IMG/VR virus record: IMGVR_UViG_3300025382_000004
Coordinates: 1-64,000 of that record
DNA from: a virus
Taxonomy: Duplodnaviria; Caudoviricetes
DNA: 64,000 nt
Strand: one strand, 5' to 3'
Under the pieces are notes generated by a model. That model made no database searches. It had not been told where the DNA came from and saw only the letters and a list, made by a program, of their open reading frames with translations. The translations under genes and the position numbers were made by a program. This document shows, one piece after another, positions 44,261-55,853 of this stretch; position 1 is the first letter of the stretch, and each line of letters opens with the position of its first letter.

Positions 44261-44318
44261 TTGACATTCCTTTTCCCAGGTGTATAATAGTAAATACTGA
44301 AACCTTGGGAAAAGGAAT
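44261..44318 (+). promoter_or_regulatory. sigma70 promoter with 12-bp inverted repeat spanning -10 and SD
   Basis: TTGACA-16-TATAAT; ATTCCTTTTCCC 44266-77 / GGGAAAAGGAAT 44307-18. Confidence 0.75.
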
Positions 44319-44323
44319 AGATT

Positions 44324-44863
44324 ATGGAATTATCATCATTACTGATGGAATCAGACCTTACAGGTTATATTTCCGAAAACCTTTCTGACCTGTGGGAAGG
44401 TACACCTCTCCAAGGATATAAATTGCTTGATAATAAGCAAAAAGGTGGTTATGGTGAAGTATTGGCCGAGAAACTTTGTGAACAATTAGGTCTCAAAGTA
44501 ACACAAAGAACAAATTCCGATCATGATATGGTCGTGAACGGTTATAAAACCGAAGTAAAATTTTCCATTGCACAAACCAATAAAGATAAAACGGCCATAA
44601 ATAAAGATGTATTTATGATGAACCATGTCGGTGTTGGTAAAGATTATGATCGTTTACTTTTCATAGGTATCAATCCTAATTTTGAGGAATCCAGGATTGT
44701 ATGGTTTGATAAAAAAGATATTAAGAAAATTATCAATAACAAAGATTATTTTGGTTATCAGCAAGGTGGTAACAATGCTGAGAATGACGACTATATGTCC
44801 GGATCGGCCAGACTTATCAGATTGATTAATTCTCCATATGCTAGGACTCTTGAACAATGGTAA
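44324..44863 (+). CDS. putative PD-(D/E)xK restriction-type endonuclease
   Basis: KGGYGE...SDHD...TEVKF; coupled to methyltransferase. Confidence 0.6.
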   Translation: MELSSLLMESDLTGYISENLSDLWEGTPLQGYKLLDNKQKGGYGEVLAEKLCEQLGLKVTQRTNSDHDMVVNGYKTEVKFSIAQTNKDKTAINKDVFMMNHVGVGKDYDRLLFIGINPNFEESRIVWFDKKDIKKIINNKDYFGYQQGGNNAENDDYMSGSARLIRLINSPYARTLEQW

Positions 44864-45588
44864 AATTATATCATGGTGATTGTCTTGAGGTTTTAAAAGA
44901 ACTTGAGAACAACTCGGTTGATATGGTCTTGACCGATCTTCCTTATGGTACCACGGCCTGTAAATGGGATGCTATTATTCCATTTGAACCTCTATGGGAA
45001 CAATTAAACCGAATTGCTAAAAAAAAGGCTGCAATGGTATTTACAGCACAAATGCCATTCACTGCGGCCTTGGCTATGTCCAATATCAAAAATCTAAAGT
45101 ATGAATGGATATGGGAAAAACCTCAAGGCACTAATCCCCTTAATGCTAAAATAATGCCATTAAAGTCACACGAAAACATTCTAGTTTTCTGCCGTGAAAC
45201 ACCTACCTATAATCCTCAAATGGAACAAGGCACACCTTATAGCGGTTTCTCTTCCGATGAGTCCAAGATTGGTGAAGTTTATGGTGGTGCCAAATCTAAG
45301 CACCGAGATAATCCTACTGGTGAAAGATATCCTAAAACCATACTAAGACATAAGCAAGAAAAAGGATTACATCCTACACAAAAACCAGTCACTCTCATGT
45401 CTTATCTAATCAATACACATTCCAATCCGGGAGATGTTGTTCTTGATTGCACAATGGGATCAGGAACCACTGGCGTTGCTTGTATTGACACGGATAGGAA
45501 TTTCATAGGTATAGAAATGGATGAAAAATATTTTAATATCGCAAAAGATCGTATTGAAGGCCGCCGAGGTCTGTTGACATTCATCTAG
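44857..45588 (+). CDS. DNA N6A/N4C methyltransferase (beta class)
   Basis: GDCLEVL, TDLPYG (motif IV), HPTQKP, VLDCTMGSGTTG (motif I). Confidence 0.9.
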   Translation: MVKLYHGDCLEVLKELENNSVDMVLTDLPYGTTACKWDAIIPFEPLWEQLNRIAKKKAAMVFTAQMPFTAALAMSNIKNLKYEWIWEKPQGTNPLNAKIMPLKSHENILVFCRETPTYNPQMEQGTPYSGFSSDESKIGEVYGGAKSKHRDNPTGERYPKTILRHKQEKGLHPTQKPVTLMSYLINTHSNPGDVVLDCTMGSGTTGVACIDTDRNFIGIEMDEKYFNIAKDRIEGRRGLLTFI

Positions 45589-45902: not shown

Positions 45903-46235
45903 ATGTCCATGATGAAAACACAAAAGCGGAAATCACGGTCTGATCGTAAACACCTTGTTTACAGTCTGTCTGTAAACGGACAGGAATACATTGGTGTGAC
46001 CTTTGTTGAACGGTCGGCTGTTAAGAAATCCCTAACCAGAAGGTGGCAGAAACATGTCCGACGGGCCCTTACAGAAAACAAAAACTGGAAGCTCTGTGTT
46101 GCTATACGCAAATATGGCGCTGATGCCTTTGACGTTACTGTATTGGACGTGGTCCGCGGTAAGTCCGCTGCTCATACCTTAGAACGTGATCTAATCAAAT
46201 CCCGCAAACCTAAACTTAACACGGATGTAAGATAA
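45903..46235 (+). CDS. short GIY-YIG-like protein (different subfamily)
   Basis: LVYSL...YIGVT...RWQKH...LE...LN. Confidence 0.6.
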   Translation: MSMMKTQKRKSRSDRKHLVYSLSVNGQEYIGVTFVERSAVKKSLTRRWQKHVRRALTENKNWKLCVAIRKYGADAFDVTVLDVVRGKSAAHTLERDLIKSRKPKLNTDVR

Positions 46236-46393
46236 TGGCTAATGCTCGTTTTGCTGCTAAAAAACCCGCTATTCAGGTTACTCTCAACCAGTTGGAGGAC
46301 TTCTTCCTTAAGGGTAATGATATTAAGGTGTGTAAGGCACCTAAACGCCCTAAGAAGGGTTATACCACTGGCAAAAAGGTGAAAGGTATCTAA
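46235..46393 (+). CDS. 52 aa basic protein
   Basis: MANARFAAKKPAIQ...KKVKGI; TAATG coupling. Confidence 0.55.
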   Translation: MANARFAAKKPAIQVTLNQLEDFFLKGNDIKVCKAPKRPKKGYTTGKKVKGI

Positions 46394-46583
46394 TGTTGGA
46401 AATAATCGCTCTAACCGTATCGCTGGCTATTCCTGTTTCTCTTGCTCTTGTTGCTTTACTCTCGGAGTCTGATAATGCTTAATTGGAAAGATGATGAACA
46501 AATGGTCCAATGCCTTGGTCTTTTCCTGACTTTGGTTGGTCTTATGTTCGGTGTTGGTCTTATCGCTTATTTTGGAGGTTAAT

Positions 46584-51292: not shown

Positions 51293-51329
51293 TAGAGGCC
51301 GCGCCCGCAAGGCGTTGGCCTCTTTTGTT
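51293..51329 (+). terminator. Rho-independent terminator
   Basis: AGAGGCC-GCGCC-cgcaa-GGCGT-TGGCCTCT followed by TTTGTTT. Confidence 0.7.
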
Positions 51330-51368
51330 TATGAGAAGGTGAATAACGAAAAACAAAAAGGTAAAGAT

Positions 51369-52094
51369 ATGTCTGTAAAAAGAAAGAAAAATAACCGTAA
51401 TCCAAACCATGAGATATCTGCACAAAACGCCGCTGAGAAAAACCACTTTGAATTGCGTCACATAAATCCACTAACAGTAAACCAGCAAAGAGTGTGGGAC
51501 GCATATGATAGCGGAGCAAATCTTATGTTACACGGTTATGCCGGCACCGGTAAAACCTTTCTGTCATCTTATCTCGCATTAAAAGAAGTTCTACACGAAA
51601 AGACATATAAGAAGGTTGTTATCATCCGATCGGTCGTACCAAGCCGCGACATGGGATTCCTACCAGGAACCGACAAACAAAAATCGGAAGTTTACGAACA
51701 ACCTTACCAAGAAATCTGTGATGACTTATTTGGTCGTGGCGATGGATGGAAGATTTTGAAGTTAAAGGGCTTAGTAGAGTTTACTACTACTTCCTTTCTA
51801 CGTGGTATGACATTTAACGATTGTATTATCATTGTTGACGAGTGCAATAATATGACATTCCAGGAAATTGATACAGTTATGACCCGTATAGGTCAAAACT
51901 CTCGCATTATATTCTGTGGTGACTATAGGCAAACTGACCTACATAAACCACATGAGAAAACTGGTATTAAAGAACTGATGGCTGTTACTCGCCGTATGCC
52001 ATCGTTTGATCATATTGAGTTTAATATTGAGGACATCGTGCGAAGCGGTGTGGTGAAAGAATATATAATACAAAAGACTGAAATGGGACTCTAA
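51369..52094 (+). CDS. phoH: PhoH-family ATPase
   Basis: GYAGTGKT, RSVV, GFLPG, LRGMTF, VDECNN, GDYRQ.D, DIVRS. Confidence 0.9.
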   Translation: MSVKRKKNNRNPNHEISAQNAAEKNHFELRHINPLTVNQQRVWDAYDSGANLMLHGYAGTGKTFLSSYLALKEVLHEKTYKKVVIIRSVVPSRDMGFLPGTDKQKSEVYEQPYQEICDDLFGRGDGWKILKLKGLVEFTTTSFLRGMTFNDCIIIVDECNNMTFQEIDTVMTRIGQNSRIIFCGDYRQTDLHKPHEKTGIKELMAVTRRMPSFDHIEFNIEDIVRSGVVKEYIIQKTEMGL

Positions 52095-52159: not shown

Positions 52160-52849
52160 ATGCTAGTGAAAACTTTTAATCATATAAACCATGACCACTT
52201 TCTAACTACTCTGAAAAGGGAAGAATATAATGGAAAACGATACTACATCTCTCCAAATGGCACCAAGTTGCCTTCGGTTACAACATTCTTGTCTCATTTT
52301 AAAGGCGATAGCATCGCAAAGTGGCGCGCCAAAGTCGGTGAAGAAGAGGCAAACCGAGTATCAGCAAGAGCATCTAGACGCGGTACACAATTTCATTCTC
52401 TCATGGAATCTTATATCAAGAATGAGGAAGGGTCAACTTACCTAACCAAAGATTTGATGCCTGATATGAAACAGGCATTCCGTAATATGTTGCCAACATT
52501 GGATCGTATTGATAATGTCCATTATGTTGAGGCAATGTTGTATAGTGAGGCCATCGGACTAGCAGGTCAGGTTGATTGTATTGCTGAGTTTGATGGCATC
52601 ACTTCCATTATTGACTTTAAGACCTCGTTGAAACCTAAGAAAGAGGAATGGATTCTCAATTACTTTGAACAATGCACCGCATACTCCTTGATGTATGAGG
52701 ATATGACCGGCATCCAGGCCAGGCAGATTGTTGTATTGATATCAGTAGACCACGAAATCCATCCACAGATATTCGTCAAGAGAAGGACAGATTATGTTAA
52801 AGGATTATATGATAAGATTGTCCAGTTTAGAGAGGAATATGAACTATGA
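52160..52849 (+). CDS. PD-(D/E)xK exonuclease (T4-like)
   Basis: LPSVTT, RGT.FH, AGQVDC, IIDFKTS, Q..AY. Confidence 0.85.
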   Translation: MLVKTFNHINHDHFLTTLKREEYNGKRYYISPNGTKLPSVTTFLSHFKGDSIAKWRAKVGEEEANRVSARASRRGTQFHSLMESYIKNEEGSTYLTKDLMPDMKQAFRNMLPTLDRIDNVHYVEAMLYSEAIGLAGQVDCIAEFDGITSIIDFKTSLKPKKEEWILNYFEQCTAYSLMYEDMTGIQARQIVVLISVDHEIHPQIFVKRRTDYVKGLYDKIVQFREEYEL

Positions 52850-52959
52850 AATATTTCCTACCAATATTGGTGTTTCTTTGTCTTGGTTTGGCTAGCTGTA
52901 ACACTATCACCATCGCAGACTGCCTTATACGGGACAACACTAGTAGCCCCTGTAACTAA
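52846..52959 (+). CDS. 37 aa lipoprotein
   Basis: MKYFLPILVFLCLGLAS|CNTITIADCLIRDNTSSPCN; lipobox LASC. Confidence 0.6.
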   Translation: MKYFLPILVFLCLGLASCNTITIADCLIRDNTSSPCN

Positions 52960-53029
52960 AGGTTCCGTAGACCATCGTGGTGTTTCGGCGCCACAGATGG
53001 AAGAGTTTGAGAACCAAGTAGAATAATAC

Positions 53030-53057
53030 TTGACATTCCCAAAAAATACTCTATAAT
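53030..53057 (+). promoter_or_regulatory. promoter for ssrA
   Basis: TTGACA-16-TATAAT, overlapping ATAAATA. Confidence 0.75.
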
Positions 53058-53063
53058 AAATAG

Positions 53064-53305
53064 TATGCTTAGGTCGTTGAGAACGGTAGAATAAGCAGGC
53101 AGGACCTGGGAGCGTTACCCAGCCGGTCCACCAAAGGACATTAAGGTGTCTTTTGGGGGCCGGAAGTAGGATCGACTGATGTGGTAAAGGCCGAAGGAGA
53201 CCAAAAGCAATCGTAAATGCTAACGATAATTCAGCATATCAGGATCTTGCTCTAGCAGCATAGTCCTACGGGCCGCCGGCAGCCTCGGAACAGAATGCCG
53301 GCACC
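53064..53305 (+). ncRNA. ssrA: two-piece (circularly permuted) tmRNA
   Basis: Acceptor piece ends CCGGTCC-A-CCA 53123-53133; coding piece starts GGGCCGG 53157 (7-bp stem with G3.U70); T-arm CTGGG/CCCAG; AGGATCGAC; tag GCT AAC GAT AAT...GCA GCA TAG 53219-53263 = ANDNSAYQDLALAA. Confidence 0.92.
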
Positions 53306-53322
53306 TCACAAAGGACACTAAA

Positions 53323-53454
53323 ATGAAAACAAAAAAGTTGATTTTAAAGTTCTATCGTGCTATACTGAATAAAGATGCTAAGAAGGAGAGGAAGTTTTGG
53401 TTTAAACTCCTCAAGAAATCTTTCAAAGGCAAAAACACTCACGCAATCCGATAG
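53323..53454 (+). CDS. 43 aa Lys-rich protein
   Basis: AAGGA SD; MKTKKLILKFYRAIL... Confidence 0.5.
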   Translation: MKTKKLILKFYRAILNKDAKKERKFWFKLLKKSFKGKNTHAIR

Positions 53455-53467
53455 GAGATATTATATT

Positions 53468-53692
53468 ATGACGCCTGAAGAAATCAATAAATTTTCTATG
53501 GCTATTGAAGAGATGGTTTATATGAAGGACATTCCTTACATTGATGCCATCTGTATGTTTGCGGAACAAAACAATATAGAAATGGAGACCGCTGGCAAAC
53601 TTGTGTCTGGCGTCCTCAAAGCCAAAATCCAACTAGAGGCTGAAGACCTCAACTTCCTTAAGAAATCTAAAACTGCTAAACTACCAATATGA
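53468..53692 (+). CDS. 33: late-transcription coactivator gp33
   Basis: YIDAI, LKAKIQLEAEDLNFLK; position before 59 and 32. Confidence 0.85.
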   Translation: MTPEEINKFSMAIEEMVYMKDIPYIDAICMFAEQNNIEMETAGKLVSGVLKAKIQLEAEDLNFLKKSKTAKLPI

Positions 53693-54300
53693 GTCACTTT
53701 TCCGCGTATGGTGCATACGTGGTCTTTGTTACTATCAGAACTCACTTTGAGAGTCCTACATTTGACCTCTTTACGCACCATAAAGTAAAAGCATCTAAGA
53801 CCACTTATGAAAAGAGACCTGATAGATGGTTCTTTGATAAATTGGCCAAGGAGTATGAAGACAGAGAACTACGAGATTTTTTTATTGCTAATAGATTGAA
53901 GGATCGTAACTATGTCACTGAGTTATTGGAGGACGAAGCAAAAGAAAACTACATTCAATACAAAGGAAGAAAACAGGCACTCACATATCACTTCGAGAAT
54001 GACGTTGATAGAGTTTTTAAATATGGCCTTGATCTTCCTTTTGATGTTAGGGACGGTGAGTATCCTTATATTGTTTGCCTATATCTTAGGGGAAGTATTT
54101 CTCCTGAGTCCATGGTCATTCTAAATGACTTTATAGGTTATACAGAAAAGTTTGATAAATATATGGGTGGCAATGATCCCATCTGGTCCAAGGTGGCGTT
54201 GAAATTACGTAAATACAAACCTTTTGTAAAATACGATAAGAATAAATTCAAACGCATACTCAAGGAGAAAATAGATGGCACCCCGAAAGAAAACGTCTAA
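53689..54300 (+). CDS. 59: helicase loader gp59
   Basis: HFESPTFD, RPDRWFF.KL, ISPESMVIL, KY.PF; synteny. Confidence 0.85.
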   Translation: MSHFSAYGAYVVFVTIRTHFESPTFDLFTHHKVKASKTTYEKRPDRWFFDKLAKEYEDRELRDFFIANRLKDRNYVTELLEDEAKENYIQYKGRKQALTYHFENDVDRVFKYGLDLPFDVRDGEYPYIVCLYLRGSISPESMVILNDFIGYTEKFDKYMGGNDPIWSKVALKLRKYKPFVKYDKNKFKRILKEKIDGTPKENV

Positions 54301-54773: not shown

Positions 54774-54917
54774 TTGACAGGACCTTAGGGTCCTGTTATT
54801 ATACAAGAATAGAGTATGGTATAAAACCGGTTCGGTATACGAACTTGGCAAATCCATACTCTCTTACATCATGATAATGTGGATAAGAAACATACAACGT
54901 TATACAAGGAGAATACG
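54774..54917 (+). promoter_or_regulatory. gene 32 promoter and structured leader
   Basis: TTGACA-17-TATTAT; AGAGTATGG/CCATACTCT stem enclosing GTTCG/CGAAC hairpin. Confidence 0.6.
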
Positions 54918-55853
54918 ATGAACTTTGCAAATCTAAAAAAGCAATCTAAGGATTTCAACGGCCTTCTAAAGCAGGTTGAAAAGATGAATGGCGGTGGTGG
55001 TAACTTCGAGAAGGAAGATACCGACAACTATTGGAAGCCAACACCAGACAAGACAGGTAATGCTCTTGCTGTTATTCGTTTCCTTCCAGGTCCTGCCGTT
55101 GATGGTGACGACGCCCTTCCTTGGGTCCGTTACTTTGATCATGGTTTCCAGAACAAGGTTACTGGAAAGTGGTATATTGAAAAGTCCCTAACAACCTTCG
55201 ATGAGAAGGATCCTGTATCAGAGTATAACTCAACACTCTGGAACTCCACACAAGACGATAACTCTCCTGAGCGGAAGCAAGCGCGTGATCAGAAGCGCCG
55301 TCTTCACTACGTTTCTAACATCTATGTGGTGAGTGATCCTAAGAATCCTGAAAATGAGGGTAAGGTATTCTTGTTCAAGTATGGCAAGAAAATCTTTGAT
55401 AAGATCACAAAGATGATGAACCCAGACCTTGAGTCCGAGGGTAAGGTCAATCCTTTTGATCTTTGGCAAGGTGCTCATTTCAAGTTGAAGGTAACCCGTC
55501 AGAATGTTAATATGGGTGGTCGTAACGTATCATTCCCTAACTATGACGAGTCCGTGTTCCTCGCACCAGGTCCTCTATCAAAGGACGATGATGAGATGGA
55601 AGCAATCTGGAAGCGTGAACATTCTCTCAAGGAGATTGTTGACCGTAAGAACTTCAAAACCTATGCTGAACTCAAGGCCCGCCTTGATGAGGTGAATGGT
55701 TACACAGGTTCAGCACCAGCACCACGGGCACCTGCTCCTGTAGAAGAGGAAGCACCTTGGGTAGAGACACCAAAGCCTGTCGCCAAGGCACCAGTTGTGG
55801 AAGATGAAGAGGATGAAGACCTCGCAATGTTTCGCAAGTTGGCTGAGGACTGA
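54918..55853 (+). CDS. 32: ssDNA-binding protein gp32
   Basis: AVIRFLP, HGFQ, WYIE, KYGKKIFDKI, GAHFKLK, NYD.S.F, acidic tail; start ATG 54918. Confidence 0.95.
   Translation: MNFANLKKQSKDFNGLLKQVEKMNGGGGNFEKEDTDNYWKPTPDKTGNALAVIRFLPGPAVDGDDALPWVRYFDHGFQNKVTGKWYIEKSLTTFDEKDPVSEYNSTLWNSTQDDNSPERKQARDQKRRLHYVSNIYVVSDPKNPENEGKVFLFKYGKKIFDKITKMMNPDLESEGKVNPFDLWQGAHFKLKVTRQNVNMGGRNVSFPNYDESVFLAPGPLSKDDDEMEAIWKREHSLKEIVDRKNFKTYAELKARLDEVNGYTGSAPAPRAPAPVEEEAPWVETPKPVAKAPVVEDEEDEDLAMFRKLAED

Follow-up and report, generated by a model that had tools for sequence, protein, structure and literature searches.

Between an exonuclease gene and a late-transcription coactivator gene, the virus DNA studied here carries a circularly permuted, two-piece tmRNA (ssrA) gene, which lies directly behind a sigma-70-type promoter and is followed by a small open reading frame (ORF) and then by homologues of T4 genes 33, 59 and 32. 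The window, that is, the whole stretch of DNA that was analysed, is the first 64 kb of a linear 88,864-bp IMG/VR virus record with a CheckV completeness of 53%. The features of the locus are as follows:

51315..52094, + strand: PhoH-like gene, the upstream flank of the conserved block (phrog_170, E 2.4e-82; also present at the corresponding position in phage Melnitz)
52160..52849, + strand: PD-(D/E)XK-type exonuclease gene (phrog_298, E 2e-69; syntenic with the Melnitz PDDEXK nuclease)
53030..53057, + strand: sigma-70-type (early) promoter, TTGACA-16-TATAAT (12/12 consensus positions)
53063..53133, + strand: acceptor piece, the 3' half of the tRNA-like domain, with its 5' end placed by inference (Rfam alignments, pair list, covariation)
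53072-53075, 53084-53087 and 53095-53102, + strand: P2 5' strands in the acceptor piece
53106-53122, + strand: T arm
53123-53129, + strand: acceptor 3' strand, CCGGTCC
53130-53133, + strand: encoded ACCA
53134..53156, + strand: intervening segment (spacer) of 23 nt, presumed to be removed in maturation (hairpin in the minimum-energy fold)
53157..53305, + strand: coding piece, with an approximate 3' end (ARAGORN, Rfam, pair list, covariation, terminal hairpin)
53157-53163, + strand: acceptor 5' strand, GGGCCGG, forming a 7-bp acceptor stem with CCGGTCC
53176-53182, 53190-53193 and 53199-53202, + strand: P2 3' strands in the coding piece
53219..53263, + strand: tag reading frame ANDNSAYQDLALAA plus stop (ARAGORN; resume codon GCT at 53219, stop TAG at 53261-53263)
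53275-53302, + strand: terminal hairpin, whose stem GCCGGC/GCCGGC pairs 53275-53280 with 53297-53302
53323..53454, + strand: ORF of 43 codons that has a ribosome-binding site of its own and separates the tmRNA from gene 33 (start region conserved in relatives)
53468..53692, + strand: gp33-like late-transcription coactivator gene (phrog_254, E 5.9e-20, over the whole 74 amino acids)
53689..54300, + strand: gp59-like helicase loader gene (phrog_269, E 1.8e-51)
54879..55853, + strand: gp32-like single-stranded-DNA-binding protein gene (phrog_224, E 8.8e-98)

The source of this DNA is a fragment of the genome of an uncultured T4-like myovirus with a G+C content of 38%, whose record encodes, among other proteins, UvsX, gp41 helicase, gp61 primase, NrdA and baseplate proteins. 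The best cultured match of its gp41 is that of phage Melnitz (59.6% identity, with cyanomyophages at 56–58%) and the best matches of its gp32 are those of cyanomyophages (about 50% identity), so the phage is a distant relative of both, and its backbone is about equally far from each. Genes for smpB, psbA, CsgG and tRNAs were not found in the 88.9-kb record, and these absences are weak evidence because the record is only half complete.

Standard tools detect the window's tmRNA at once. ARAGORN reports a single RNA gene in the 64-kb window, a permuted tmRNA ('tmRNA*') at 53040-53354 whose tag is ANDNSAYQDLALAA, and the region also matches the Rfam models alpha_tmRNA (RF01849; 53026-53305, 89 bits, gathering score 50) and tmRNA_permuted (RF04321; 53072-53263, 84.2 bits, gathering score 47). 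A preliminary description of this DNA, made from the sequence without database searches, had proposed that the phage encodes a two-piece tmRNA in circularly permuted form, placed shortly before genes 33-59-32, and had named an ARAGORN and Rfam alpha_tmRNA scan as a way to check it. That proposal is borne out by both programs and by the synteny and covariation described below; the elements that it listed (promoter, acceptor piece, spacer hairpin, coding piece, tag and terminal stem) all lie where it had placed them, the phrog matches above confirm the three downstream genes, and its remark that the window holds no smpB extends to the rest of the 53%-complete record.

The anatomy is that of a permuted gene, with the T arm and CCA half upstream of the 5' acceptor strand and tag message and the spacer between them. 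The acceptor stem that is formed across the two pieces has 7 bp including G3.U70, followed by a discriminator A and CCA (alanine identity), and the P2 long-range helices pair the 5' part of the acceptor piece with the coding piece. The tag frame has an alanine codon as its resume codon and closes with a hydrophobic degradation signal of the LAA type (ALAA) and a stop; an upstream GCA was considered as the true resume codon and rejected, since the GCA frame is not conserved among relatives. The 246-nt precursor has a predicted folding energy of −92.4 kcal/mol (z = −3.5), and 0 of 200 shuffled sequences fold as well. Its minimum-energy fold recovers the T arm and the acceptor stem, and in this fold the spacer hairpin also pairs CCA with UGG. 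A pseudoknot between upstream G-rich bases and the loop of the 3'-domain hairpin is plausible, as judged by eye. The motif AAAGGACA[T/C]TAA occurs twice at the locus, at the start of the spacer (53134-53150) and just past the tmRNA (53306-53325), where it provides the 43-codon ORF with its ribosome-binding region; a small duplication, a common signal for processing or mere coincidence may explain the repetition.

Exact TTGACA-16-TATAAT sites are found only twice in the 64-kb window, in front of the tmRNA (53030-53057) and at 44261-44288, the latter upstream of a gene pair at 44324-45588. Transcription from the tmRNA promoter would start near 53063-53065. We found no terminator between the tmRNA and the genes that follow, so this promoter probably drives the 43-codon ORF (53323-53454) and gene 33 as well. 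The small ORF has no family match; its product is lysine-rich, it is conserved in close relatives, and it carries a synonymous change in one of them (L005, below). The automatic annotation of gene 33 as 105 codons (53375-53692) probably begins too early; the start codon that has a good AGGAG site lies at 53468. An ATAAATA motif beside the −10 box is invariant in relatives, some of which have the exact TATAAATA there; we do not propose a late promoter on this basis, since TATAAATA is about as frequent in the window as expected (7 sites against 6.6). In two contigs, L002 and L007, whose tmRNA and downstream genes are nearly identical to those of the window, the promoter region reads TTGCCA-17-TATAAA and includes the exact TATAAATA, and comparison with window positions 53020-53065 suggests that promoters have been swapped by recombination among close relatives.

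Eight IMG/VR contigs have a gp59 that is 87–100% identical to that of the window, and all 7 of the 7 such close relatives that hold the upstream DNA have the tmRNA (90–125 bits). Their tags are ANDNSAYQDLALAA, ANDNFASFDLALAA or ANDNFAPLDIALAA, with the frame kept. Both pieces are conserved in the close-relative alignment, in which the spacer varies from 23 to about 200 nt, and their acceptor stems carry compensatory changes (GGGCCGG/CCGGTCC, GGGCCAG/CTGGTCC, GGGGCAG/CTGCTCC and GGGCCCG/CGGGTCC). The spacer of one contig (L005, gp59 95% identical) is 185 nt long (its positions 2238-2422), as compared with 23 nt in the window, and holds a 77-codon ORF (2248-2481) with its own ribosome-binding site; the last codons of this ORF enter the coding piece, and its residues 1–55 match phrog_4098, a family of unknown function (E 4.8e-11). 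Another contig has a tRNA-Arg(TCT) gene directly upstream of its tmRNA (L008:474-550); the window's record has no tRNA genes.

A pattern scan for the alpha-type T-loop plus acceptor motif recovered at least 119 IMG/VR contigs. Many of these display the nuclease-tmRNA-gp33-gp59-gp32 synteny at just 30–45% protein identity; in many viral contigs, as in the window, the nuclease gene adjoins the tmRNA. Tags among these contigs differ widely (for example ANESYALAA, ANYNNFALAA and ANDNNAYDLALAA); across the clade the resume codon, the frame and the ALAA end are kept and the middle residues of the tag vary.

A covariance model was built on the tRNA-like domain plus P2, and 88 matches to it were aligned, 84 of them distinct. 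In this alignment, which is fitted to the model, 94.2% of the cells of the 84 distinct sequences are paired as against 71.7% in shuffles, 20 of the 27 pairs change on both sides, and the covariation score is 0.497, compared with 0.139 in shuffles (0 of 500 reach 0.497) and 0.02–0.06 in slid controls. The split acceptor stem is 100% paired in at least 80 distinct relatives, with 3 covarying pairs, and helices 1–4 (P2) are 76–98% paired, with 15 of 15 pairs changing on both sides. The pattern by which the sequences were collected fixed the T stem and TCCACCA and left the 5' acceptor strand free, G3 included; U70 is thus imposed by the collection, whereas G3 is invariant among the relatives although it lies outside the pattern. 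The spacer ranges from 5 to 224 nt (median 62) while both pieces stay conserved, and in 51 of 53 distinct 3' domains the terminal hairpin has a conserved A[AC]AGAA loop between arms that differ greatly in sequence. The covariation, the variable spacer and the terminal hairpin together indicate selection on the RNA structure and argue that the gene is neither a relic nor a chimera.

The closest described system is the two-piece ssrA that Buchholz et al. (2022; PMC9004378) found behind an early promoter in the OM43 myophage Melnitz. The same study reported 53 two-piece tmRNAs in 18,146 phage genomes (50 of the 53 aquatic) and, among 47 contigs of the Melnitz or pelagimyophage type, 17 with a permuted tmRNA (PMC9004378). 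The Melnitz record (GenBank MZ577097) has, in order, PhoH, a PDDEXK nuclease, two small ORFs, ssrA (45984-46436, tag ANDNYVPVDYALAA), gp33, gp59, thyX and gp32, and this shared gene order makes the window gene the positional orthologue of Melnitz ssrA. Both genes are of the two-piece alpha type, sit in a PhoH-nuclease-ssrA-gp33-gp59-gp32 block behind an early promoter with gene 33 in the same transcription unit, and encode a 14-residue tag of the form ANDN....D.ALAA. The RNAs themselves have diverged beyond detection by blastn, in which a 551-base query around the window gene found nothing among cultured phages. Buchholz et al. describe a glutamine riboswitch, within the 3' domain or downstream of it, as common and not defining (PMC9004378); the Melnitz riboswitch was recovered at 52.8 bits as a positive control, whereas 52800-53800 of the window gave no riboswitch match at E ≤ 10, and its place is occupied there by the ribosome-binding site and the 43-codon ORF. 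The two genes also differ in the PK1 region (42 nt in the window, 62 nt in Melnitz) and in ARAGORN gene length (315 nt in the window, 453 nt in Melnitz).

Among bacteria, two-piece tmRNA is known from Caulobacter (Keiler et al. 2000, as cited in PMC9004378). The alphaproteobacterial form (RF01849) shares with the window gene the permuted order, the alpha-type T loop, G3.U70, encoded ACCA, the P2 helices, an ANDN... tag and a terminal hairpin with an AACAGAA loop; the window copy differs in being carried by a lytic-type T4-like phage and in lacking the PK1 that is kept in 55 of 55 bacterial genes. Phage tmRNAs in general have been catalogued since at least 2014 (PMC4131195). The one-piece tmRNAs of the mycobacteriophage Bxz1 group and Bacillus phage G are, like that of the window, phage-borne with no phage smpB reported, but they are standard unpermuted genes of unrelated phages and hosts (PMC4131195). 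Mycobacteriophage DS6A likewise has a reduced tmRNA; it consists of the tRNA-like domain only, without a tag frame, and has been proposed to be a tmRNA inhibitor, whereas the window gene has a full tag frame (PMC4131195, PMC11915505). The two-piece phage ssrA, its genome position and its early promoter are therefore already published for related marine phages, and the window gene is a further example and no discovery; the sole aspect that might be new is its compact form.

Only 16 nt separate P2a from the resume codon GCU in the window, and in the window clade this codon lies 42 nt from the D-loop-like TCGAC. In several further phage lineages, the syntenic L126, L163 and L185 among them, the distance is 41–45 nt; in Melnitz it is 62 nt, and it measured 59–132 nt, with a conserved PK1 sequence inside, in all 55 of the 55 bona fide bacterial alpha tmRNAs examined. 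A region of 42 nt set against 59–132 nt means that pseudoknot PK1 is missing in the window clade, and, judged from these sequences, the window's phage sublineage has lost it. The only 'bacterial' case with a short distance (L049) is in fact a contig from a T4-like phage that was assigned to a metagenome-assembled genome, and the PK1-less form has so far been seen in phage contigs only. PK1 is typical of the alpha-type two-piece tmRNA rather than strictly defining. Work in E. coli has shown PK1 to be the pseudoknot that matters most for tagging and to be replaceable by a hairpin; its loss, which may mean that tmRNA function is altered, is notable and not disqualifying. Whether the window clade, together with L126, L163 and L185, represents an undescribed minimal tag-encoding two-piece tmRNA (about 65 + 149 nt, without PK1) is a suggestion that we make only tentatively and think rather doubtful.

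The preliminary description had also taken the ANDN tag as pointing to an alphaproteobacterial host, and this part proved unsafe. Melnitz was isolated on OM43, a member of the Methylophilales and not an alphaproteobacterium (PMC9004378), and yet it has a syntenic alpha-type ssrA; the tmRNA type thus tells of the history of the phage lineage and not necessarily of the present host. No close bacterial donor emerged either. A tag-pattern scan of species genomes found similar tags, ANDNVASQD[FHY]ALAA, in large alphaproteobacterial contigs and the tag ANDNFANDNFEFAPVALAA in freshwater 'Rickettsiales' metagenome-assembled genomes, and it yielded no bacterial tmRNA above 74% identity over about 90 nt. 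The clade model matched 145 of 151 sampled Alphaproteobacteria, the best at 89 bits as against 150–160 bits within the clade (the sample includes the unpublished genome G045, on which no claim depends), and none of the sampled bacterial tags is the same as that of the phage. The tmRNA gene seems to have been inherited within the phage lineage. A further idea in the preliminary description, that the RNA may do more than rescue ribosomes because tmRNA affects the timing of replication in Caulobacter, is speculative.

Short contigs with T4-like nuclease/gp33/gp59 genes were encountered in metagenome-assembled genomes of the species-genome collection assigned to Verrucomicrobiales, Saprospiraceae and Spirochaetales (L049, L056 and L063). 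L049 and L056 have two-piece tmRNAs too, with the Melnitz-like tags ANDNFAPVDYALAA and ANDNVAPSGYALAA. All three look like phage contigs misbinned into bacterial genomes, and such misbinning would yield false 'bacterial' tmRNA records.

On this sequence evidence the locus is probably a functional, phage-owned two-piece tmRNA gene of the alpha type and an orthologue of the ssrA genes found in Melnitz and in pelagimyophage-type contigs. Its working can be outlined as follows, with the steps of maturation, charging, delivery and tagging taken from established tmRNA biology. Host RNA polymerase would transcribe the gene early from the consensus sigma-70 promoter, in a transcript that would also span gene 33 and the small ORF before it. 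The precursor would open with the 3' half of the tRNA (T arm, acceptor 3' strand and encoded ACCA) and continue with the 23-nt spacer hairpin, the 5' acceptor strand and the tag message. Host RNase P would cut 5' of G1, and host 3' trimming would expose the CCA, so that the spacer is lost and two RNAs are left, which the acceptor stem and the P2 helices keep joined. Host alanyl-tRNA synthetase would charge this RNA by way of G3.U70, host SmpB and EF-Tu would bring it to ribosomes stalled on broken messages, and the ribosome would resume on GCU and add ANDNSAYQDLALAA, whose ALAA end would send the product to host proteases, and the stalled ribosome would be freed. The likely gain for the phage is that scarce ribosomes stay available during the destruction of host mRNA.

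Could the RNA instead modulate the host's own trans-translation, by titrating host SmpB or competing with host tmRNA, so that stalled products receive the phage tag or none? The missing PK1 of the window clade and a tag unlike every bacterial tag sampled would suit such a role, and Hudson et al. note strong tmRNA inhibition by a molecule that they describe. A pure decoy, however, needs none of the complete tag frame, canonical resume codon and ALAA end that are kept across the clade, and a region of PK1 length is retained in the Melnitz-type relatives; we consider modulation of this kind unlikely. Buchholz et al. raised for Melnitz the idea that the tmRNA mainly remodels the proteome (PMC9004378): more tagging early in infection would deliver truncated host proteins to proteases and so supply amino acids to the phage. 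The early promoter of the window gene fits the timing argument made for Melnitz (PMC9004378), and the degradation-type ALAA end is conserved. The sequence does not separate remodelling from plain ribosome rescue; tmRNA tags only the products of stalled ribosomes and not host proteins generally, and remodelling as the main role appears very unlikely to us.

A further alternative is that this is not a working phage gene: it could be captured host DNA in decay, the ssrA of a host next to a prophage, or a product of chimeric assembly. Integration often occurs at bacterial tmRNA genes (PMC4383910), and some of the at least 119 viral contigs may for this reason be prophage edges. The window gene, in contrast, has T4-like genes on both flanks and the same position in at least 8 independent contigs and four Melnitz isolates, all of its helices have remained intact through compensatory changes, and the 74% limit found in the tag scan leaves it without a near bacterial counterpart, all of which makes this origin extremely improbable.

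The functional phage tmRNA that we favor means that one more uncultured T4-like phage lineage has its own ribosome-rescue RNA, and that the ssrA-gp33 arrangement is old and has been held by selection across very divergent aquatic myophages. It also means that the type of a phage tmRNA is an unreliable indicator of host. The PK1-less compact form could interest students of the minimal requirements of trans-translation, and neither it nor the lesson about host indicators changes current understanding. Should the shortened RNA still be able to tag and rescue, trans-translation would have a natural minimal model in it; should it not, the RNA could serve the phage to divert or dampen the trans-translation of the host.
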